A DNA stretch of 10,064 nucleotides. Source: an uncultured Spirochaetota bacterium (GTDB taxonomy: Bacteria; Spirochaetota; Spirochaetia; SZUA-6; Fen-1364). The translations under genes were made by a program, and so were the position numbers. The notes beneath the pieces were generated by a model. The model ran no database searches. It worked only from the letters and a program-made list of their open reading frames with translations, and had not been told where the DNA came from. Location of the stretch: positions 1-10,064 of the forward strand of contig CAVUXE010000055.1 of assembly GCA_963745235.1 (NCBI GenBank), in the 5' to 3' direction. The stretch's first letter is position 1. Each line of letters opens with the position of its first letter. Positions 466 to 10,064 of this stretch are shown here, piece after piece.

Positions 466-978
466 GTTGGTCTCCTGCCTGAAGGCACTGCACCTCTCAG
501 TGGCTGCCGAGTGCTACGCCGAGACCGCCGAGGAAGCGCGGCGGGAACAGCTCACCCACGAGCAGTTTCTATTGGCCCTCACGCGTGAGGAGTTGGAACA
601 CCGCCAGGAGAACCGCACCGAGCGCTGGCTGCACGAGTCGCGCCTGCCGTTGGAGAAGGGCTTGGCCAGCTTTGACCGCGGTCAAGCTCCCCGGCCAAGG
701 TAACCGCCGCCCTGACAACGCTGCTGGAGGGGGAGTTTCTCACACGCGCCGAGAACGTGCTGGTCTTTGGCAACCCCGGAAGCGGCAAGACCCATCTGGT
801 GTGCGCCCTGGCCCAGGAACTGATCCATCGGGGACACCGGATCCTGTTCTACCCTTGCCAACTGTTGGTCCAGGATCTCCTGCGAGCCAAGCGGGACCTC
901 ACCCTGGCCCAGGAACTGAAACGCATGGCCCGCTACGAGGCCCTCATCATCGACGACATCGGGTACGTGCAGCACTAA
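449..978 (+). pseudogene. istB: IS21-family ATPase IstB, frameshifted and 3'-truncated
   Basis: ATG at 449 follows a GAGGAG RBS. N-terminus LKALHL...EQFLLAL..EELEHR; Walker A GNPGSGKTH; Walker B LIIDDIGY. Two +1 shifts near 678-695 are needed to join the frames. Homology stops at GYVQH* (976-978). Confidence 0.9.
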
Positions 979-982
979 CGAC

Positions 983-1126
983 AATATGTTTACAACTAAG
1001 TCATTAAGGAATAACGAATTAGAGAAAATATGTTTACAAAAATGTCCATGTTTACACTTTAATTCTATACATCAATAGGAATTACAAGGGATTGTAAACG
1101 CTCTTTATCTTGTCCTTGTCCTTGTA
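983..1126. repeat. AT-rich cluster of ATGTTTACA-type repeats
   Basis: AATATGTTTACAA at 983-995 and 1027-1039, ATGTTTACA at 1048-1056, inverted TTGTAAAC at 1092-1099, and CTTGTC-CTTGTC-CTTGTA at 1109-1126. Confidence 0.75.
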
Positions 1127-1188
1127 AGCTCTTTGAAGGGGGTAGAGGGCGTCTTGGGATACCTGGATTGATTGGAAGGTTGCTCTTA

Positions 1189-1383
1189 GCGCGCAGGAGA
1201 TGTACTGAAGTCCTTGTGGATGTTGTTGCTGTTTTGGCGGGCCTGTCGTCTTCAAGACGACTAACTGTAGATTGCCAACTCCACAGGGACCGTTCTGGTC
1301 TGATAAAACAAATGCCTGCTCCAAAGTGGAGTGGTTGCTCTTTACAAGGATGACCTGGGCGGAACGGTCGATTTTTCTCGCGC
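1189..1383 (+). ncRNA. Candidate IS110 bridge RNA in the 5' non-coding end
   Basis: Two adjacent stem/internal-loop/hairpin arms. Arm 1: 1210-1220/1280-1290 with apical hairpin 1245-1261. Arm 2: 1291-1297/1360-1366 with apical hairpin 1316-1334. A possible closing stem pairs 1189-1201 with 1371-1383. It lies directly upstream of the IS110 recombinase RBS. Confidence 0.6.
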
Positions 1384-1394
1384 AGGAGGAGGAA

Positions 1395-2831
1395 ATGAAA
1401 GAGAGCAATGCCATCGGAATTGACCCTGACTCGCAGGGGTTCGTATGCGCCTACGTGAAGCGTTCCGACGCAAAGGTTTCCGTCAGAGGGTACCTGACGA
1501 CGGATGCGGATTTGAAGAGCTTTCTTCAGTGGGTGAAGGGAGAGAAGAATGTCGTCGTCGCGATTGAAGGCAGCAATGGCCTAAGCAAGCCCCTGGAGAA
1601 AGCGCTGCGTGAAGCGGAGGTCATATTCTACTCCTTCAAGCCCGCAGACACGGATAAGTTCCGCAAGGCGGTACTGGGGCAGAACAAGAACAACAAGAAG
1701 GACGCAGAGTCGGTTGCCCGCTATGCGATGGCCCTTGAGGCGCAGGAGAACTTCGGGAGGTATCGAAGGGTATCGTTCGCCGGATCAGGAGCTCCAGCTT
1801 CTGACCCGCGCCTACGAGAGAAACTCGCAGGAGCTGACGGCGGAGGTAAATCGGTTGTGGAAGACGATTCGGTTAGCGTCACCGGACTTCTATCTTGCGC
1901 TTCGGGGAGGGCATCCCGAGGTGGAACTTGGCGAAAAGGTATTGAAATCCCACCGGGAATGACTCTTCTGAGCGCGAAGCCGGATTTCGGCGAGTGGAAA
2001 CATCTCTGCGATGAGGAATTGGTGGAAGCGATGGGAGGGCGAAACCGCAAGTGGCGGAGCATCGTCATCCAGAAGTTGCGCAACGTAATGGGAGTTTCAA
2101 TCCCGTGTCACCCGCCTTGGCTCTGATGATAAGAAGCAGCGCTCAGAAGATCGAAAAGCTCAAGCACGATCGCCTCGAAATTACCAAGATTCTCGCCGTA
2201 CTCACCAAGGATAGGGCGGCGGTCAAAGTGTTGCAGGGAAACACGAGGGATCTCGACGATCACCGCGGCGACGATGGTTGCCGAGATTGTCGACATCAGA
2301 CGGTTCGCTCGAGAAGACAGTCTCGCTTGCTACTGCGGCTTGGGAATGAGGGAGCACTCTACGGGAGAAAGCGTGAGGATGGTTCCTACAGAGTTGTTCA
2401 ACCATCGGCTGAAAGATATCTTCATGACTGCGGCGTGGAACGTAGTCCATTACAATCCTGAATCTCACGTAGCGGGGTACCACAGAAACCTGATAAAAGC
2501 GGGAAAGTCTCCGCTGGCAGCAACCAAGCGCGTTGCGCGAGCCCTTGTGCGAGTCATTTACCGCAAGCTCTTCACACTTGTCGGTGAGATCACGACTGCA
2601 CCAACGGAAGATGAAAACAAGGAGGGAGAAAGCGACATGGCAAGCGGTTCTACCCGCGGTGGCCAAAGCCACACGAGCGACATATCGCTTTCATCCCGAG
2701 GCAATTATAGGGCTGCAGACGCGAAGAGAGTCAAGAAAGGAGCTGCTCCGATAGAGAGAAGCAAGGAGCCAAGAAGGAAGGGAAAACCCTTGGAGAAACG
2801 ATTCGGCGCGGCCCGAGCGGGACCTCTTTGA
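1395..2831 (+). pseudogene. IS110-family recombinase/transposase, split by four frameshifts
   Basis: GGAGGAGG RBS then MKESNAIGIDPD..., VVAIEG and KNNKKDA (RuvC-like domain). The C-terminal Tnp domain reads GISTITAATMVAEIVDIRRF...LACYCGL...HSTG...NHRLK...VARALVRVIY. Pieces come from ORFs 1272, 1609, 2051 and 2274, with shifts near 1775, 1955, 2090 and 2240. Confidence 0.9.
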
Positions 2832-2953
2832 CTGGAGGGGGCTATCGAGCTGGATTAGACACGACTACCGTGACTGGTTGCCCGCCATGACGCGCTGCGG
2901 TAAAGTGGGCACGAGGAAAAGCTTGTGGGTCAATCTGGCCACTGTCGGAGCTT

Positions 2954-3012
2954 TGGACCTACCCCAAATTCGTGGACACAGGGTTAAGCAGTAACTTGAA
3001 GGGGTAGGTCCA
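2954..3012 (-). mobile_element. 59-bp miniature IS3-family remnant (internally deleted)
   Basis: Perfect 12-bp inverted ends TGGACCTACCCC (2954-2965) / GGGGTAGGTCCA (3001-3012) with TG...CA termini. 2954-2979 matches the IS3 IR at 5831-5856 at 19/26 positions. Confidence 0.65.
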
Positions 3013-3350
3013 CTGCGAGAATAATCCGGTCAACAGAATTGATCTCGCTGGGAGACAAAGCTCCTTAGAGGGGAACCGGGTCTGAGAACCCAGGCCTCTA
3101 CAAACCATCTCAGCCTCTGAGTCTTCCGGCTATGGGACAATATCCAACGCCGTCTCTGAATCATCTACCATCTTCTTTTTTGCGATTTATGAATTAACAG
3201 AAAAACCACGCTTAATCTCTTGACCCATCTTCTACAGTTTGAGGCCGTTCTGAAGTGCCTACCCCCGAATTTACAGGGAATTTGAGGGATTTTCGCCGAC
3301 GCGACCGATTTATGTAGTGCCAACAAAGTGAGTCCATATGCAGAAATATC

Positions 3351-3379
3351 TTGCATTCGATGCAATCTCATGATAGTAT
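3351..3379 (+). promoter_or_regulatory. Putative sigma70 promoter of the IS1634 transposase
   Basis: TTGCAT-17 bp-TAGTAT. The second copy has TTGCAG-17 bp-TAGTCT at the equivalent position (9938-9910, minus strand) although the spacer differs. Confidence 0.5.
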
Positions 3380-3403
3380 CCGTGGTGGGGAGGGACGCAC
3401 GCA

Positions 3404-5047
3404 GTGTTCGTCCGCATCAAGAACTCTCACGGATACAAGTACCTCCAGATCGTGGAGAATAGGCGCGAGGGCAACAAGGTCAAGCAGCGCGTGCTCACCA
3501 CACTCGGTCAGTTCGATGCACTCACCGAATCGGGCAAGATCGATGACCTCACCCGTTCACTGGCGAAGTTCGCCTCCACACGCACCATCATCGATGCCCA
3601 CCGCGAAGGGGCTATCCAAGCCCGCCGCACCCTGTCCATCGGCCCTGCCTTGGTCTTCGAGCGGTTGTGGCAGCAATTGGGAATCAAAGAGGCGATAAAA
3701 GAAGAGCAGTCGGCCAGCCGATGCCGTTTCCCGTTGGAGCGCGCGATCTTTCTCACCGTGTTGCATCGCCTTGTGGATCCTGGAAGCGACCGCGCGGCAG
3801 AGCGCTGGAAGGAGGATTTCCAGATCAGCGGGACCGAGGGCATCGAGCTGCATCATCTCTACCGCGCTATGGGCTGGCTGGGCGAGCAGAGCCTTCAGCT
3901 CGGCCACGATGCGCGAAGCCTGCGATGCCGAAAGGACCTCATCGAAGAGAAGCTTTTCCGCCGCAATCGCGATCTGTTCAGCGAGCTGGAGCTCGTGTTC
4001 TTCGACACCACCAGCCTTTACTTCGAGGGGCAAGGCGGGGAGAGCCTGGGACAGTACGGACACAGCAAGGACCACAGGCCCGACCTGAAACAGATGGTGG
4101 TCGGGGCGGTGCTGGACGGCACGGGGCGGCCGATCTGCTGCGAGCTGTGGCCGGGGAACCTCACCGATGTCACCTCCCTTATCCCGGTGGTCAAGCGTCT
4201 GAAGAGCCGCTTCGGCATCGCCTCGGTGTGCGTGGTGGCCGATCGCGGGATGATAAGCGCAGAGACGATCCAGAAACTTGAGAGTGCTGATCTCGGCATG
4301 TCCTATATCCTCGGGGCGCGCATGCACAGGGACAAAACGGTGCGCGATGAAGTGCTTCCCTCCTCTGCGGAGTTTCAGGTGGTCACGGGAGCGAAGAAGA
4401 AGGCCCAGGATCCCTCGCCGCTTTCGGTGCGCGAACAGTGGGTGGGAGGAAAGCGCTACATCGTCTGCTACAACGAAGATCAGGCGCGAAAGGATGCCGC
4501 TGACAGGGCGGCCATCGTGGAGTCCCTGAAAGAGAAGCTGAAAAGCGGGGACAAGAGCCTGGTAGGCAACAAGGGCTACAGGCGCTACCTGAAGTCCGCG
4601 GGAGCGCAGCACTTCACGATTGACGAGGCGAAGCTCGCCGAAGAACAACGATTCGACGGCATGTGGGTTCTTCGAACCAACACGACGTTTGCCGCCGCGG
4701 ATGTCGCACTGAAGTACAAGCAGTTGTGGATGGTGGAGTCAATCTTCCGTTCGGCCAAGAGCCTCCTTGAGACCCGCCCGATCTATCACAAGGTCGACGA
4801 TACCATCCGCGGGCACGTGTTCTGTAGTTTCCTCGCCCTGGTGCTGCGAACAGAGTTGGAGACGCGACTCCAGAAGCGAGGGGAGAAGCTGGAATGGGCG
4901 GACATCAACAGGGACCTTCGCGCCCTGCAGGAAGTGGAAGTGCAAATGAACGGCAAGAAGCTGTACCTGCGGACTGACCTCCGTGGGGTATGCCACACGG
5001 TATTGCAGGCAGCGGGGGTTGCGGTGCCGCAGACGGTCCGCGAATAA
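3404..5047 (+). CDS. IS1634-family DDE transposase, 547 aa
   Basis: MFVR...YKYLQIVEN.R N-terminus; FFDTTSLYFEG, GHSKDHRPDLKQ, VVADRGM, YKQLWMVESIFRSAK and RPIYH motifs; intact ORF with GTG start. Confidence 0.95.
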   Translation: MFVRIKNSHGYKYLQIVENRREGNKVKQRVLTTLGQFDALTESGKIDDLTRSLAKFASTRTIIDAHREGAIQARRTLSIGPALVFERLWQQLGIKEAIKEEQSASRCRFPLERAIFLTVLHRLVDPGSDRAAERWKEDFQISGTEGIELHHLYRAMGWLGEQSLQLGHDARSLRCRKDLIEEKLFRRNRDLFSELELVFFDTTSLYFEGQGGESLGQYGHSKDHRPDLKQMVVGAVLDGTGRPICCELWPGNLTDVTSLIPVVKRLKSRFGIASVCVVADRGMISAETIQKLESADLGMSYILGARMHRDKTVRDEVLPSSAEFQVVTGAKKKAQDPSPLSVREQWVGGKRYIVCYNEDQARKDAADRAAIVESLKEKLKSGDKSLVGNKGYRRYLKSAGAQHFTIDEAKLAEEQRFDGMWVLRTNTTFAAADVALKYKQLWMVESIFRSAKSLLETRPIYHKVDDTIRGHVFCSFLALVLRTELETRLQKRGEKLEWADINRDLRALQEVEVQMNGKKLYLRTDLRGVCHTVLQAAGVAVPQTVRE

Positions 5048-5152
5048 GGGCGCCGCCCAGGGAAAGACGGCTCTGTAGTGCCAAAGAACGTTTCGACGAT
5101 CCATAATTCCTTACAGGGCAAATACTTCACTTTTCAAAGTGTCGAAGATGGG

Positions 5153-5554
5153 CTTGACCAGATCGGGAGCAAGAACCGCCGCACAATCCCGCACGGTCGT
5201 GGTGGTCCACTTGCGCCGACTCACGCCCCGCAGGGCTTTTTCGCGCATCAGGCGAGCCACCCGCTTGCGCCCGATGTGCGTGCCCTCGGAGGCCAACTCG
5301 GCGTGGACCCGCGGTGCCCCGTAGGTACCGCGCGAGTACGCGTGAATGCGGTGGATCCCCGTGCTCAAAGCCGAGTCCTGGAGGGTCCGTTGGGAGGGCC
5401 CTCGCGCTGCCCACGCGTAGTATCCGCTGCGCGACACTTCCAGCACGCGACTCATCGTGGCCACCAAGTGCTGCGCCTCCTGGCCGCTCATGTACTCGAA
5501 GGCCTTCGTGGCGTCGCGCCGGTCTCCTGCGCGAACCACGCAGCAGCTTTTTTT
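5153..5554 (-). pseudogene. IS3-family OrfB, truncated before the catalytic DDE domain
   Basis: MSRVLEVSRSGYYAW...SRGTYGAPRVHAEL...GRKRVARLMR...APDLVK, after which the IS1634 end begins. Confidence 0.9.
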
Positions 5555-5802
5555 AGAATGTCGCGCTCTTCCCGCAGCGTGCGAACTTCGCGCCTCAGTT
5601 CGTTCAACTCCTTGCGCTCGTCCGTGGTCAGACCGTCCGTCCGCACCCCGGCATCGCGCGCGGCTTGGGCGACCCAGTTGCGGATCGTTGTTTCCGTTGG
5701 TTCAAACTCCCGTGCCAGGCTGGCAGGGGTTCTGCCGGCTCGCGCCAGGTCAAGAATCCGCTGGCGCAACTCCGACGCATACGCAGGTTTGCTTCGTGGC
5801 AT
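5488..5802 (-). CDS. IS3-family OrfA (HTH), 104 aa
   Basis: PAYASELRQR...SLAREF...TIRNWV...ELNELRREVRTLREERDILKKAAAWFA. A GGAG RBS is upstream, and an A7G -1 frameshift motif lies at 5554-5547. Confidence 0.9.
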   Translation of the reverse strand: MPRSKPAYASELRQRILDLARAGRTPASLAREFEPTETTIRNWVAQAARDAGVRTDGLTTDERKELNELRREVRTLREERDILKKAAAWFAQETGATPRRPSST

Positions 5803-5899
5803 GACTCATGCTCCTTCTCAAAGGGTCGACATGTCCACGAAATCGGGTCAACTCCAGAGGAACCCTCGCCCCATCCGGTGGCCAGCCATCCATTGAGCA

Positions 5900-6016
5900 A
5901 TCTAACATAGAATTCAGTAGCGCCGCCGAATCACCAACGCGAAGCGAACCCCACGGATCGGCCCACCGTCGATCCACAGATGCACCCAAGGCGACAACTG
6001 CAACGACTTGTTATAA
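5900..6016 (-). other. Integron attC site 1 (belongs to the methyltransferase cassette)
   Basis: Minus strand: TTATAAC-AAGTC-GTTGCAG...CTGAAT-TCTAT-GTTAGAT. It begins 9 bp after the methyltransferase stop, and the arms pair with two extrahelical bases. Confidence 0.88.
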
Positions 6017-6025
6017 CGCGCTCCG

Positions 6026-6904
6026 CTACTTCACTACAGCAACCGCGACTCGATAAGACTCGTATCCTTTCATTTTGAGGCTAGCGTCGCCAAAATACCG
6101 CTTTCGGTATTCAGCTGCGCCCATATTCATCTCAAGAGATAGACCACGTTCTACCAGATAGGCATCGAGGCTATCCGGTTGGATTCCAAAAGTCCACCTT
6201 TCTCCCACACCGGAGAGTAATTTCACAATTTCATCCGTTCCGTAAAACGCCCCGGGATCGTCAAGGACTTTCTTGTCGATATACGTGAAGACGATACGGC
6301 TTCCCGCAGCCGCTTTTGCGCAAAAAAGCAGTGTTGAGTCCACAGTTTGAGCGGTGAGGTAGTTTGATACTCCTTCCCATATGAATACCGTACGGACCGC
6401 GAAATCAAAACCCGCGTCTTTGAGAAACGTCTCAAGCTTCTGCTGATTGAAATCCATTCTGACGAATCGCACGTTATCTGGAACACTTCCCATCGCCCGT
6501 TCGGTTTGTCTGAGCTTTGCTGCGGAAGTTGCAGGGTGGTCCACTTCAAAGACAGTCGCTTTGGACATTTGGGGCATGCGATAGGGTCTTGAGTCAAACC
6601 CCGCCCCAAGAAACACAATCTGCGCCACGCCTGTTGCCAACTCTCGCTCGAGGGTATCATCGATAAGTCGCGTGCGCGCTATGCCGGATGTCCGTGCGCC
6701 TGGCCATCTGCGATCAATCAGTTGGCTTACGGCACAACGCACGAAAGGAATTGCAGAGACTCCCAGAATGAGGCGTAGCGAGGGCGAAAGGTACAATTTC
6801 GCATATTGATCTGTGAAAAGGCGACTACTCTGGGCACTTCGAGACTCGAGCGCTCTGAAGAGGGCCATAAACATCGCGGTTCGGCTAGCCTCGGTCGCCT
6901 TCAT
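6026..6904 (-). CDS. Class I SAM-dependent methyltransferase, LCM/TcmP-like family, 292 aa (gene cassette 5906-6980)
   Basis: SRTA...RALE, ARTRLIDD, QIVFLGAGFDSRPYR, FEVDHP and WEGVSNYL motifs; AAGGA RBS; flanked by attC sites. Confidence 0.88.
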   Translation of the reverse strand: MKATEASRTAMFMALFRALESRSAQSSRLFTDQYAKLYLSPSLRLILGVSAIPFVRCAVSQLIDRRWPGARTSGIARTRLIDDTLERELATGVAQIVFLGAGFDSRPYRMPQMSKATVFEVDHPATSAAKLRQTERAMGSVPDNVRFVRMDFNQQKLETFLKDAGFDFAVRTVFIWEGVSNYLTAQTVDSTLLFCAKAAAGSRIVFTYIDKKVLDDPGAFYGTDEIVKLLSGVGERWTFGIQPDSLDAYLVERGLSLEMNMGAAEYRKRYFGDASLKMKGYESYRVAVAVVK

Positions 6905-6974
6905 TGTATGTCCTTGTCGCTACTCAATTGTGCCTGTACTGACCACCCGACTCGCATGATCACATCTTAACGCG

Positions 6975-7090
6975 TTATAACATAGAGTTAAGCCGCCCCG
7001 CCGCATCAGCCCAGCGGCGACGGCTTTTACCAAACCTATGCCCCACTACAAGCCGGACGTCAAGGGGTCGGCTTCAACGACTTGTTATGA
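6975..7090 (-). other. Integron attC site 2 (belongs to the TA cassette)
   Basis: Minus strand: TCATAAC-AAGTC-GTT(G)AAG-CCG(A)CCCC...GGGGCGG-CTTAAC-TCTAT-GTTATAA. The L-box stem is perfect with two extrahelical bases. Confidence 0.92.
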
Positions 7091-7215
7091 CTACTCCCGT
7101 TCAGATTGGCCCTACCACTACAGCTAGCCACTCTGAGGATTCAGGCGCCCGAGCCAAGGAAGGCGAGGGCGTGTTCACCGCCGTCATTCGCCGCGAGGAA
7201 GCGCACCCAGGATCC

Positions 7216-7494
7216 TCATGAGATGGCTATCCGCAGCTCCTTGCCGAGTGCCTCCGCTACCTTCTTGAGGGTCGATACCCGAATGTCCTCAGCATGGTTT
7301 TCAATTCTAGAAATTGCGCTCTTTGACGTCCGGAGCCGCCGTGCAAGTTCGTCCTGAGTGACGCCGCTCTTCTGTCGAGCACTGCGGAGAAGGTAGCCTA
7401 TCTTGAACTCTTGGTAGCCAGCATCGAATCCCTTTGCGAAGCGCTTGTCGCTTTTCTTCCGCTGGGTTATGTATTTGTCTAGATCATCCCGCAC
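7216..7494 (-). CDS. XRE-family HTH antitoxin (HigA-like), 92 aa
   Basis: LRSARQKSGVTQDELARRLRTSKSAISRIEN...TLKKVAEALGKEL; GTG start with GGGAGG RBS; overlaps the toxin 3' end. Confidence 0.88.
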   Translation of the reverse strand: MRDDLDKYITQRKKSDKRFAKGFDAGYQEFKIGYLLRSARQKSGVTQDELARRLRTSKSAISRIENHAEDIRVSTLKKVAEALGKELRIAIS

Positions 7495-7843
7495 GTCCGT
7501 GCCTCCCTATGTGATCAGCCTTTAGCCGTTCGGCTTGCCTGATTTCTTCAATAGGCGTTTTCGGCGTCTTCTTCATGAAACCATGGGTCAGAACCAACCG
7601 GTCTCTCCCGTGAAAGAAGCCCAGGATCCGATAGGTGTTTCCACCGAAGACGACGCGACACTCCCATATCTCGTCGCTCGCAGTCAGCTTCTTGAAGTAC
7701 TGCCCAGGAACTGCGTCCAGTTCTTGGAGCAGCTTCAGTACCCACGTCACTTTCTGGGCGGCCTTTGAGGGTAAAGAATCAAGGAACTTGACTACCGGAC
7801 ACTGTCCTTTCTCAGTCTTGTAGAAGACGAGCGACCGTCCCAT
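7484..7843 (-). CDS. RelE/ParE-superfamily toxin (HigB/Gp49-like), 119 aa
   Basis: FYKT..G.CPV.KFLDSL, KKL....IWECRV....YRI and LVLTHGFMKKTPKTP.EEI motifs; toxin-first order upstream of an HTH gene. Confidence 0.9.
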   Translation of the reverse strand: MGRSLVFYKTEKGQCPVVKFLDSLPSKAAQKVTWVLKLLQELDAVPGQYFKKLTASDEIWECRVVFGGNTYRILGFFHGRDRLVLTHGFMKKTPKTPIEEIRQAERLKADHIGRHGRAG

Positions 7844-7877
7844 GGTTAAGGTTCACTTATTTGTTATCTTTCGTCAA
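7844..7877 (-). promoter_or_regulatory. Putative TA promoter/operator
   Basis: TTGACG (7877-7872), then 17 bp, then a weak -10 GAACCT 5 bp before the ATG. An imperfect palindrome GATAAC-N6-GTGAAC overlaps the spacer. There is no RBS. Confidence 0.45.
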
Positions 7878-8022
7878 GCGAATGCGACGGTGCGCTTGCA
7901 ACCAAGTCGTGGAGAGCCCAAAGACTTGCCGGAGGGGCGGGTTAGTCAGGCAGGGATGCCTGACGCCCGTCCCCTCCGCCGCTTGAAAAGACTCACAAAC
8001 GCCAAGGACCGATCTTGAGTGG

Positions 8023-8138
8023 TCATAACATAGAGTTAAGCCGCCCCGCCGCATCAGCCCAACACTGGACGGAATTGCCAAGCTGCATTCACGCTTCCGG
8101 GCGGCCCTTGAGGGGACAACTGCAACGATTTGTTAGGC
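8023..8138 (-). other. Integron attC site 3 (its cassette ORF is displaced by IS1634)
   Basis: Minus strand: GCCTAAC-AAATC-GTTGCAG...GGGGCGG-CTTAAC-TCTAT-GTTATGA. It shares 37 identical nt with attC2 (8025-8061 = 6977-7013). Confidence 0.88.
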
Positions 8139-10064
8139 CCATCTTCGACACTTTGAAAAACGATGTGCTTACCCCGTAAAGGATTAGAAGACAGGGGTAA
8201 CGTGTTGGCACTACAGCGCTGCTTTCCTTGGAATCACCGGCGTCATTCGCGGACCGTCGGCGGGGCGGCCACGCCGGCAGCCTGCAGCACCGTGTGGCAT
8301 ACGCCGCGAAGGTCGGTGCGCAGGTAGATCTTCTTTCCATTCATTTCGACTTGCACTTCCTGAAGCGCTCGGAGATCTCGATTGATATCTGCCCACTCGG
8401 GCTTCTGCCCTTGCTTCTCAAGGCGCGTTTCCAACTCTTTTCGCAGCACCAGGGCGAGAAAGCTGCAGAAGACGTGGCCCCGGATGGTGTCGTCAACCTT
8501 GTGATAGATCGGGCGGGTCTCCAAAAGGCTCTTGGCCGAACGGAAGATGGATTCCACCATCCATAGCTGCTTGTATTTCAGCGCTACCTCGGCGGCAGCA
8601 AACGCCGTGTTGGTGCGAAGCACCCACATGCCGTCGAAGCGTTGCTCGGCGGCCAGCTTGGCCTCGTCAATCGTGAAGTGCTCCTTGCCCGCCGACTTCA
8701 GATAGCGGCGATAGCCCTTGTTGCCCACGAGGCTCTTGTCCCCGTTTTTCAGCTTCTCTTTCAACGACTCCACGATGGCCGCCCTGTCGGCGGCGTCCTT
8801 TCGGGCCTGATCCTCGTTGTAGCAGACGATGTACCGCTTGCCCCCCACCCACTGCTCGCGGACCGAAAGCGGCGAGGGATCTGCGCTCTTTTTCTTCGCC
8901 GGCGTGACGACGTGCAGCTTCTCAAGGGAGGGAAGTACGGTATCGCGCACCGTCTTGTCGCGGTGCATGCGTGCTCCAAGGATGTAGGACATGCCCAGCT
9001 TTTCACTTTCCAGCTTCTCGATCGTTTGGGCGCTGATCATCCCACGGTCGGCCACCACGCATACCGAGGCGATGCCAAAGCGGCTCTTCAGTCGCTGGAC
9101 CACCGGGATCAGCGAGGTGACATCGGTGAGGTTTCCGGGCCACAGCTCGCAGCAGATCGGCCGTCCTGCACCATCGAGCACCGCCCCTACCACCATTTGC
9201 TTCAGGTCAGGCCGGTGGTCCTTGCTGTGCCCATACTGTCCCAGGCTCTCACCACCGTTGCCTTCGAAGTACAGGCTGGTGGTGTCGAAGAACACCAGCT
9301 CCAGTTCGCTGAACAGGTCGCGGTTACGCTGGAAAAGCTCCTCTTCAATGAGGTCCTTTCGGCAGCGCAGGCTTCTGGCATCATGGCCGAGTTGGATGCT
9401 CTGCTCGCCCAGCCATCCCATGGCGCGGTAGAGGTGATGCAGCTCGATGCCCTCGGTCCCCTCGATCTGGAAATCCTCTTTCCACCGTTCTGCGGCGCGG
9501 TCGCTTCCGGGATCCATCAGCCGATGGAGGACGGTGAGGAAGATCGCCCGTTCCATGGAAAAGCGCCACCGTCGATCGGCTACCTGGCCTTGGATTGCCT
9601 CGGAGATTCCCAACTGCTGCCAGAGTCTACCAAAAACAAGGGCGGGACCGATGGACAGGGTCCGATGAGCCTGGATGGCCCCCTCTCGGTGCGCATCGAT
9701 GATGGTTCGAATCGAAGCGAACTTCGCCAACGAACGGGTAAGGTCATCGATCTTGCCCGATGAGCGCAGCGGCTCCAGTTGACCCAGGGTGGTGAGCACC
9801 CGTTGTTTGACTTTCTTGCCTTCGCGCTTGCTTTCCACGATCTGCAGGTACTTGTAGCCGTGAGAGTTCTTGATGCGGACGAACACGCCGTCTCCCCTCC
9901 CCCTCACAGAGACTATCATGGGAGACCTTATTCTGCAAGCAATTTCTTCAAATCACGCCTATTCCGTGGCACTACAAATACGGCTCCGGTTATACGAAAA
10001 CCTTCAAATTCCCTGCAAATTCGAGGGGTAGGCCTTCCCGGAAGCGTTCAAACTGTCGAAGATG
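8138..10064 (-). mobile_element. Second IS1634-family element, inverted; last 2 bp of the left TIR fall outside the window
   Basis: TIR CCCATCTTCGACACTTTGAAAA starts at 8138. The window ends ...TCAAACTGTCGAAGATG. The predicted length of 1929 bp equals copy 1. Confidence 0.93.
8243..9886 (-). CDS. IS1634-family DDE transposase, 547 aa (diverged paralogue of 3404-5047)
   Basis: Same motifs and length as copy 1 when started at GTG 9886; many substitutions relative to copy 1. Confidence 0.95.
   Translation of the reverse strand: MFVRIKNSHGYKYLQIVESKREGKKVKQRVLTTLGQLEPLRSSGKIDDLTRSLAKFASIRTIIDAHREGAIQAHRTLSIGPALVFGRLWQQLGISEAIQGQVADRRWRFSMERAIFLTVLHRLMDPGSDRAAERWKEDFQIEGTEGIELHHLYRAMGWLGEQSIQLGHDARSLRCRKDLIEEELFQRNRDLFSELELVFFDTTSLYFEGNGGESLGQYGHSKDHRPDLKQMVVGAVLDGAGRPICCELWPGNLTDVTSLIPVVQRLKSRFGIASVCVVADRGMISAQTIEKLESEKLGMSYILGARMHRDKTVRDTVLPSLEKLHVVTPAKKKSADPSPLSVREQWVGGKRYIVCYNEDQARKDAADRAAIVESLKEKLKNGDKSLVGNKGYRRYLKSAGKEHFTIDEAKLAAEQRFDGMWVLRTNTAFAAAEVALKYKQLWMVESIFRSAKSLLETRPIYHKVDDTIRGHVFCSFLALVLRKELETRLEKQGQKPEWADINRDLRALQEVQVEMNGKKIYLRTDLRGVCHTVLQAAGVAAPPTVRE

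Follow-up and report, generated by a model that had tools for sequence, protein, structure and literature searches.

In the parts of Durrant et al. 2024 (PMC11208160) that set out the organisation of IS621, the left end of the element encodes, upstream of the recombinase gene, a bridge RNA with two internal loops, of which the first serves the target and the second the donor. In the same account each loop's 3' side complements the core and the right half-site, the core being CT, and a -35 box lies in the right end, so that a promoter is formed at the junction when the element is circular. The seekRNA of ISEc21, an element of IS110 type, depends, as Siddiquee et al. 2024 (PMC11187229) describe it, on a non-coding region upstream of the transposase that determines the guide RNA, and work cited in that article has the IS1111-attC group (ISKpn4, ISPst6) inserting at one end of integron attC sites.

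The stretch of DNA that we analysed, referred to below as the window, is a whole contig of 10,064 nt belonging to a metagenome-assembled genome of Spirochaetota type that is 85.7% complete. Ahead of a gene for a DEDD recombinase of the IS110 family lies the segment 1210-1367 (+), and we propose, with a probability of roughly 0.88 and on the strength of sequence comparison, that it is the bridge-RNA gene in the left end of an IS110-type insertion sequence of which this copy is apparently immobile. The features are collected in Table 1.

Table 1. Features of the candidate bridge-RNA locus and its surroundings, in window coordinates
Feature	Position	Strand	Sequence, basis or remark
Flanking DNA, AT-rich end of another element	975..1120	+	three direct ATGTTTACA repeats; contains the insertion site
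Core dinucleotide, left junction	1121..1122	+	CT; homologue junctions
Left-end non-coding DNA, short type	1123..1209	+	starts TGTAAGC; 90 nt from core to arm 1
Arm 1, target-binding loop (predicted)	1210..1290	+	covariation, independent RNAalifold prediction, guide-to-flank matches
Arm 1 basal stem	1210-1220 / 1280-1290	+	GTCCTTGTGGA / TCCACAGGGAC; sequence
Arm 1 additional stem	1222-1225 / 1276-1279	+	GTTG / CAAC
Left target guide (predicted)	1236-1244	+	GGCGGGC+CT; guide-to-flank matching in homologues
Arm 1 apical hairpin	1245-1261	+	GTCGTCT 1245-1251, TCA, AGACGAC 1255-1261
Right target guide (predicted)	1263-1270	+	AACTGT+AG; guide-to-flank matching in homologues
Arm 2, donor-binding loop (predicted)	1290..1367	+	helix covariation, guide-to-end covariation
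Arm 2 basal stem, register of the first-pass annotation	1291-1297 / 1360-1366	+	CGTTCTG / CGGAACG
Arm 2 basal stem, alternative register	1290-1298 / 1354-1362	+	
Left donor guide (predicted)	1304-1313	+	TAAAACA.AT; TAAAACA itself 1304-1310
Arm 2 apical hairpin	1316-1334	+	CTGCTCCA 1316-1323, AAG, TGGAGTGG 1327-1334
Right donor guide (predicted)	1342-1348	+	TTACAAG; covariation with left end
Ribosome-binding site of recombinase gene	1385..1392	+	GGAGGAGG; read from sequence, GGAGG conserved in leader alignment
IS110-family DEDD recombinase gene	1395..2831	+	PF01548, PF02371; broken by four single-base indels
3' region in place of canonical right end	2806..2953	+	common to sister L035 alone among the loci fetched

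Pieces of the recombinase gene match PF01548 (E 1.1e-9) and PF02371 (E 2.2e-11) in Pfam. An intact form of 478 aa from another assembly (P0001), whose last 185 aa are 100% identical to the window gene, scores 151.2 bits against the NCBIfam model NF033542, 'IS110 family RNA-guided transposase', for which the cutoff is 140. To the IS621 recombinase of known structure it bears only slight resemblance (E 1.3e-4, 24 bits), and the first-pass annotation of this DNA was therefore apt in calling the recombinase divergent.

The same annotation had picked out two arms with apical hairpins and a 9-nt complement, all of which are present, where it had placed them or one base away. The complement is formed by TTACAAGGA at 1342-1350 and TCCTTGTAA at 1119-1127, each of which is exactly the other's reverse complement; by our own arithmetic, about 0.15 such 9-nt complements are expected by chance within ~276 nt. 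The minimum free energy fold of 1195-1394 (+) shows both arms, with a z score of -1.70 and 11 of 200 shuffles folding equally well, and the minus strand of the same interval takes another shape with a z score of -2.20. No Rfam family matches the leader at E values up to 1. Given the z score of the plus strand and the chance expectation for the complement, the case made from the single sequence is weak and becomes strong only through the homologues.

Homologous leaders were collected by way of the protein. A search with its C-terminal piece gave 223 proteins of ~470 aa (E up to 1e-3) among 1559 candidates; 34 proteins were aligned, and the alignment was used to fetch DNA, namely 14 loci from species genomes and the best 80 of 214 metagenomic loci. 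At least 200 nt of upstream sequence was available for 83 leaders, that of the window included, and removal of ten exact duplicates brought these to 73. Four further loci in which arm 1 is replaced or cut (L041, L045, L047 and L073) were left out, which gave an alignment, A2, of 69 leaders.

Across these 69 leaders a structure of five helices and 37 pairs has 90.8% of its cells paired, as against 85.7 +/- 0.3% in shuffled alignments; 23 pairs are changed on both sides (13.9 in the shuffles) and the covariation score is 0.236 (0.154 in the shuffles). None of 500 shuffles attains any of these three measures, and sliding the partners by 1-3 columns as a control lowers pairing to 34-52%. Helix 1, in arm 1, is 98.8% paired with changes on both sides at 6 of its 13 pairs, helix 4, in arm 2, is 93.7% paired, and helix 5, likewise in arm 2, is 89.1% paired with changes on both sides at 7 of 8 pairs. 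From the same alignment RNAalifold independently arrives at the stem of arm 1 and at both the basal stem and the hairpin of arm 2, in a prediction of 32 pairs of which 15 have compensatory changes. The arm-1 apical hairpin is badly aligned by MAFFT and was for this reason folded sequence by sequence; it has at least 5 bp in 55 of the 69 rows (63 distinct sequences, mean z score -3.1). The course that the first-pass annotation had suggested, of gathering homologous leaders, folding them and examining covariation with RNAalifold, leads to conserved and covarying stems.

The alignment also bears on strand and register. Several conserved pairs are G-U in many leaders, columns 136-165 being one such case (39 of 69 rows with GU); read on the opposite strand these would become A-C mismatches, and they favour the plus strand, as had been argued from the G-U pairs of the window. 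The arm-2 basal stem closes in 58 of 69 rows in the register first noted and in 68 of 69 in a register 5 nt upstream, and the window allows both. Of 73 positions with conservation of 90% or more among the other leaders, the window RNA retains 71, and both of the changes turn a U-A pair into U-G.

Matches between the loops and DNA outside the RNA point to the roles of the two arms. In arm 1 the 5' loop was compared with the left flank plus CT, where a locus's own pair scores 6.9 of 9 (n=50) and permuted pairs 4.68, and the 3' loop, in the bases just before ATTGCC, complements CT plus the right flank, with 6.7 of 8 for own pairs (n=46) and 4.73 for permuted ones; none of 2000 permutations equals either value. 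Right flanks scoring 6/8 or less number 12 of the 46, three of these being wrong junction calls by the regular expression. By our own count the predicted right-target 7-mer stands directly behind the right-end motif in 42 of 74 rows, many of the others having no downstream sequence. These matches bear out the assignment of arm 1 as the target loop. Among the 50 loci there are 44 distinct left targets, together with 32 distinct right targets, which indicates that the loops have been reprogrammed many times.

The 3' loop of arm 2 carries a 7-mer whose reverse complement is found upstream in 52 of the 69 loci, at a distance from core to arm 1 of 121-152 nt in 47 of these 52, with 90 nt in the window and 85 nt in L035; of the 17 loci that have no upstream left junction, 10 have less than 160 nt of upstream sequence and 7 have enough. 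The 7-mer is TTACAAG in 53 of 69 rows. Variant 7-mers of five types occur in 14 junction-bearing loci, all with the matching change in the DNA: CTACAAG with CTTGTAG (9 loci), TTACAGG with CCTGTAA (2 loci), TTAAAAG with CTTTTAA, TTACGAG with CTCGTAA and TTACAAA with TTTGTAA.

At the other end of the element the homologues have a canonical right end, ...AAAAAAA-N3-CTTGAC-N4-CTAAAACAAT, followed by CT. The motif TAAAACA is present both in this right end and in the 5' loop of arm 2, and the two are altered alike in L032 (AAAACT) and L071 (CAAAAC), though not in L091 (CATT). This candidate left-donor pairing is the weakest of the four, as it needs a one-base bulge to reach AT-CT and covaries in only two loci. 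ATGCCT, considered as the terminus of the right end by analogy with arm 1, is absent from the homologues. The core CT is found at both junctions in homologues, where it separates the left end from the DNA before it and the right end from the DNA behind it, and is covered by guides of all types; L083 apparently has a TT core. When right end, core and left end are joined, TTGAC(T/A) and TAAGAT or TAGGAT come to lie 17 nt apart, with at least 9 of 12 matches in 31 of 39 loci.

The concerted changes of TTACAAG and the left end in 14 loci, and of TAAAACA and the right end in L032 and L071, uphold the view that arm 2 is the donor loop. Of the right donor guide placed by the first-pass annotation at 1342-1350, the seven bases 1342-1348 stand, and in the window TTACAAG matches CTTGTAA at 1121-1127 in 7 of 7 positions; the outer GA at 1349-1350, which would pair with TC at 1119-1120 of the flank, does not belong to it, and we read these two pairs as chance because they are unmatched in L035 and in the canonical donors. 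The left end, which had been put near 1119, is placed at 1123, directly behind the core CT. The three guides that could not be matched earlier are now located, although in the window the flank misfits the left target guide and no right end fits the left donor guide. Covarying stems and loop matches to outside DNA among the 69 leaders together sustain the identification of a candidate bridge RNA upstream of an IS110 recombinase.

For the mechanism of the family we infer from this covariation and from what is published for IS621 that the excised element would circularise and so bring its right end (...CTTGAC-N4-CTAAAACAAT) up against the core CT and, beyond it, the left end (TGTAAG...), and that the circle junction would then form a TTGAC-17-TAAGAT promoter driving both the RNA and the recombinase. 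The second loop of the RNA would hold the donor junction and the first loop the target, with seven bases plus CT that copy the left target, while AG and a further five to six bases complement CT and the right target, and the recombinase would swap strands at CT.

The window copy, whose RNA is intact, departs from this scheme in several respects, and seems, as judged from its sequence, unable to move: it has four frameshifts, no readable right end, a non-cognate flank and no promoter-like site. Comparison with the DNA of L035 and L038, the nearest relatives among the loci fetched (14 plus the best 80 of 214), places the breaks in the recombinase frame at ~1779 (+1), 1957 (-1), 2092 (-1) and 2236 (+1). 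The canonical right end was sought in the window, where two matches with 2-3 mismatches were found and 4.8 expected, and in the genome, where one match with 3 mismatches was found, the same as in the reversed control. The left flank, CCTTGTC-CT, agrees with the left target guide of the same copy at 4 of 9 positions, a score that among the 50 loci is as low only in L072 and lower in none. The genome lacks the predicted target, GGCGGGC-CT-ACAGTTAG; the only matches to it have 3 mismatches and number 6, against 43 in the reversed control. A promoter scan of 1050-1450 gave no sigma-70-like or promoter-like site, and upstream of arm 1 no hexamer pair of the window exceeds 6 of 12, as compared with best scores of 7-9 in 61 of 65 homologues. 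DNA and protein searches of the assembly, in which repeats often go unassembled, found no other copies of the element.

A right junction at 3232 was tried and rejected: the 8-mer CTACAGTT, as predicted from the right target guide, stands there behind TTGAC, and it lies inside an IS1634-family terminal repeat, a stretch that other IS1634 ends share. Contigs from public sequencing runs put the boundary of the repeat at 3223-3225. We took the site at 3232 to be chance, although the G/C difference between the guides of the window and L035 mirrors two variants of the terminal repeat.

More about the insertion site can be learned from the same run contigs. Positions 1114-1120 carry the left-target bases CCTTGTC and fall within the AT-rich end of another element, which interrupts an upstream gene at 974/975; contigs of run X2 agree with the window over 912-974 and differ from it after that. 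Those of run X5 match from 1048 or 1079 to 1116, continue along a related end through ...CTCTTTATCTTGTCCT and then enter unrelated DNA, which constitutes an empty site. An 819-nt contig of run X1 spans 902-1680 without gaps, and the junction is therefore real. In the homologue L059, which is inserted into a related end at the corresponding site, the left target guide, TCTTGTCCT, fits that site, which the guide of the window does not; the window site has six extra bases, CTTGTC being present twice. For the right half of the X5 empty site the window has no match and the genome no more than chance would give, so the region to the right has been rearranged or lies beyond the contig. IstB was considered as an identity for the interrupted gene, a name that we had presumed from a Walker-B-like motif, and was given up as the gene has no match in Pfam or NCBIfam. 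Possible explanations for the presence of an element with a GGCGGGC guide at this site are an off-target or half-match insertion, a later rearrangement or a polymorphism of the site. Insertion of the off-target and half-match kinds has been described for IS621 bridge recombinases in the account that we draw on (10.64898/2026.08.31.748434).

An alternative view of these departures, which we consider unlikely, is that the element is fully active, that the frameshifts are errors of assembly or consensus, and that the window and L035 form a sub-lineage with a longer, unrecognised right end near 2953, which something other than the TAAAACA guide might read. The recombinase is intact in P0001, which is identical over the C-terminal 185 aa, and in L035 (P0002). 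The comparison with the public runs covers assembled contigs only, and these end right around the frameshift sites; a contig of X5 lacks the additional base at 2236 and the other three indel sites are uncovered. Because an intact P0001 exists and the run contigs break around the indels, the frameshifts could be assembly errors or represent one variant of several. Against errors of this kind, the contig also carries two IS1634-family genes, both free of frameshifts, which indicates that the contig is not generally error-ridden. As for the right end, homology between the window and L035 includes the 2806-2953 region and stops exactly at 2953, as it would at an element boundary, and in L035 the bases that come next agree with its right target guide in 6 of 8 positions, a score that ~9% of unrelated pairs also reach. 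L035 moreover combines its intact gene and the same odd 3' region with a cognate left flank (8/9), so that the missing right end may simply be one that we do not recognise. However, the left donor guide is canonical and nothing near 2953 resembles it, the window bases behind 2953 fit the window's own right target guide at 3 of 8 positions, and the poor fit of the left flank and the want of a second copy in the genome also speak against present activity. A search of 91 further genomes of the order for the 2806-2953 region gave a single match, which covers coding sequence only, and no copy of the region. On balance we regard the window copy as most probably a relic left stranded; at best it would be one of several variants in a mixed population.

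Less probable again is a reading in which the sub-lineage of the window and L035 has lost the canonical right end while keeping the bridge RNA intact, and in other assemblies an intact recombinase gene, with the recombinase uncoupled from its own mobility. In such a case the enzyme might be domesticated, act in trans, for example on attC-like repeats, or recognise its donor in another way. Three such repeats lie in 5889-8139 of the window, spaced by 1075 and 1048 nt; a long hairpin is formed by the middle one (z -2.84) and not by the other two (z scores of -0.92 and +0.88). We take an integron attC to be an imperfect inverted repeat with RYYYAAC ... GTTRRRY cores that forms a hairpin downstream of each cassette ORF. 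In the element family 14 of 51 loci have right flanks with a ...CAACGAnnTGTTA-type tail. Better supported than domestication is the suggestion that attC targeting of the IS1111 kind has been adopted independently by this IS110-type family, in which the guide RNA precedes the gene. The attC-like repeats in the window are uninterrupted, and its IS110 copy is not in one.

We think it very improbable that the structure has no guide role and is merely a 5' leader acting in cis on how the recombinase mRNA is translated or how stable it is. It does lie directly upstream of the ribosome-binding site, and the minimum free energy fold puts a third hairpin over GGAGG, but a leader of this kind would give no account of loops that change together with both flanks and both element ends, which are DNA outside the transcript. 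That the stretch codes for protein, as an N-terminal extension of the recombinase (P0010, of 500 aa, is annotated with a start 28 codons upstream and reads through arm 2) or in overlapping ORFs of 61 aa (1168..1353, +) and 110 aa (1082..1414, -), can practically be dismissed, since conserved stems in the leader alignment are interspersed with hypervariable segments and indels of one base, conservation tracks base pairs and not codons, and the window frame upstream of the ATG contains a stop, TGA at 1351-1353, with which the ORF 1168..1353 ends.

Returning to a bridge-RNA gene in the left end of an immobile copy as the preferred reading, this case illustrates that a bridge RNA can be found by a reader who has the sequence alone, and that public metagenomes are enough, with no experiment, to decode its four guides. 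As the family is distant from IS621 in its protein, has a longer right target guide and has been reprogrammed in nature, it is a possible source of new programmable recombinases. The window copy itself is a natural case of an element at a site not specified by its own target loop, and in this way it bears on the debate over bridge recombinases that insert off target or at half-matches, as far as that is laid out in the source cited above for IS621 (10.64898/2026.08.31.748434).

The RNA is of the known bridge-RNA kind, in a lineage remote from IS621, and the mechanism is not new; the element family may already stand in the supplementary lists of Durrant et al. Compared with IS621, as far as the portions of the article drawn on here describe it (PMC11208160), the position of the RNA, the order of the two loops, the geometry of both target guides and the right donor guide (and possibly of the left donor guide), the CT core and the junction promoter are the same. 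The differences are that the recombinase has 478 aa as against the 328-residue chain of the IS621 structures (8WT6 and others), to which it is similar at E 1.3e-4, that the right target guide has 7-8 nt with the core as against 4 in IS621, that the left-donor pairing apparently contains a bulged base, that the leader has no counterpart in Rfam, and that the window copy is without a readable right end or a cognate flank. With ISEc21, which we liken by its description in the parts of the article consulted, the family has in common a non-coding guide region upstream of the gene, although in ISEc21 a shorter seeker RNA is enough for movement. In the IS1111-attC group, as summarised in the same article, the non-coding region lies downstream of the gene, whereas in the present family it lies upstream.

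Three repeats lie in the right half of the window, spaced 1075 and 1048 nt apart, and each is preceded by a minus-strand ORF (see the table for the coordinates of these and the neighboring features). Together, the repeats and ORFs resemble a cassette array of the integron type, the repeats being attC-like. When all three repeats were folded, a long hairpin was obtained for the middle one only (z -2.84).

Features of the window that surround the IS110-type element, with the cassette-like array
Feature	Position	Strand	Remarks
AT-rich end of another element	975-1116		three direct ATGTTTACA repeats, one inverted TGTAAAC
Hairpin	2954-3012		TGGACCTACCCC ... GGGGTAGGTCCA
IS1634-family element, copy 1	3225-5158	+	inverted relative to copy 2
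Putative IS3-family OrfA-like protein and OrfB start	5160-5810	-	read by eye
Repeat 1	5889-6017		~128 nt
LCM methyltransferase ORF	6026-6904	-	precedes a repeat of the array
Repeat 2 (middle)	6964-7091		~128 nt
HTH/antitoxin-like ORF	7216-7494	-	precedes a repeat of the array
Repeat 3	8012-8139		~128 nt
IS1634-family element, copy 2	8132-10027	-	inverted relative to copy 1

The insertion site of the homologous locus L099, AGGGGACAA-CT-GCAACGATT, is present in the window as an exact and uninterrupted copy within 8109-8139. Because 14 of the 51 right flanks of the IS110-type family carry a tail of the ...CAACGAnnTGTTA type (L022, L039, L048, L050, L051, L058, L077, L097-L101, L104 and L106), attC-like sites would appear to be the insertion targets of many members of this family.

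The array, together with an IS3-like fragment, is bracketed by the two inverted IS1634-family copies (NF033559, E 1.7e-119), which are 79-84% identical to each other, and the attC-like repeat at 8132-8139 adjoins the second of them. The putative IS3-like fragment is itself truncated at 5158 by the IS1634-family element.

To the left of the IS110-type element, an upstream gene is interrupted at 974/975 by the AT-rich element end. Its product ends ...IIDDIGYVQH, and the gene may be IstB-like; searches of Pfam and NCBIfam with it gave zero matches. The multiple sub-terminal repeats of the AT-rich end are reminiscent of Tn7-like or IS21-like ends, and a related element end with TGTTTACA/TGTTAACA repeats flanks the homologue L059. 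On the other side, the hairpin begins precisely where homology to the sister copy L035 stops, and its first 34 nt are found also on two other contigs of the same genome, as well as in contigs of three public runs, where the flanks are different.

Most homologues (L097 and L051, for example) conserve in their left ends a G-rich tract with four G-runs, GGGAGGGGG-N3-GGGGGAGGGAG, a possible quadruplex, and most also have TGTGGATATGTGGATAA as a direct repeat, with TTGAC behind it. The tract and the TGTGGATATGTGGATAA repeat are situated between the terminus and arm 1 of the bridge RNA; in the window copy and L035 the left end is shorter and both are degenerate. At L052 and L053 the right end is followed by two tandem copies of a 15-nt sequence (CTCCAGCACCATGTT), as if the right target half had been duplicated.

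The 500-aa database protein P0010, a homologous recombinase, is annotated with 28 additional codons at its start, whose translation passes through arm 2 of its own bridge RNA. This is likely a mis-annotation of the start site, and it shows the nucleotide conservation of TTACAAGGATGAC.

Residues 248-323 of P0001, the intact 478-aa form of the window recombinase, match the NCBIfam model of the TIGR-Tas RNA-guided endonuclease below threshold (E 1.4e-9; 38 bits, cutoff 100), and the match covers the start of the C-terminal domain. A literature search found no report of attC-like insertion by IS110-type elements with an upstream RNA; insertion into such sites is, according to PMC11187229, a published habit of IS1111-type elements.
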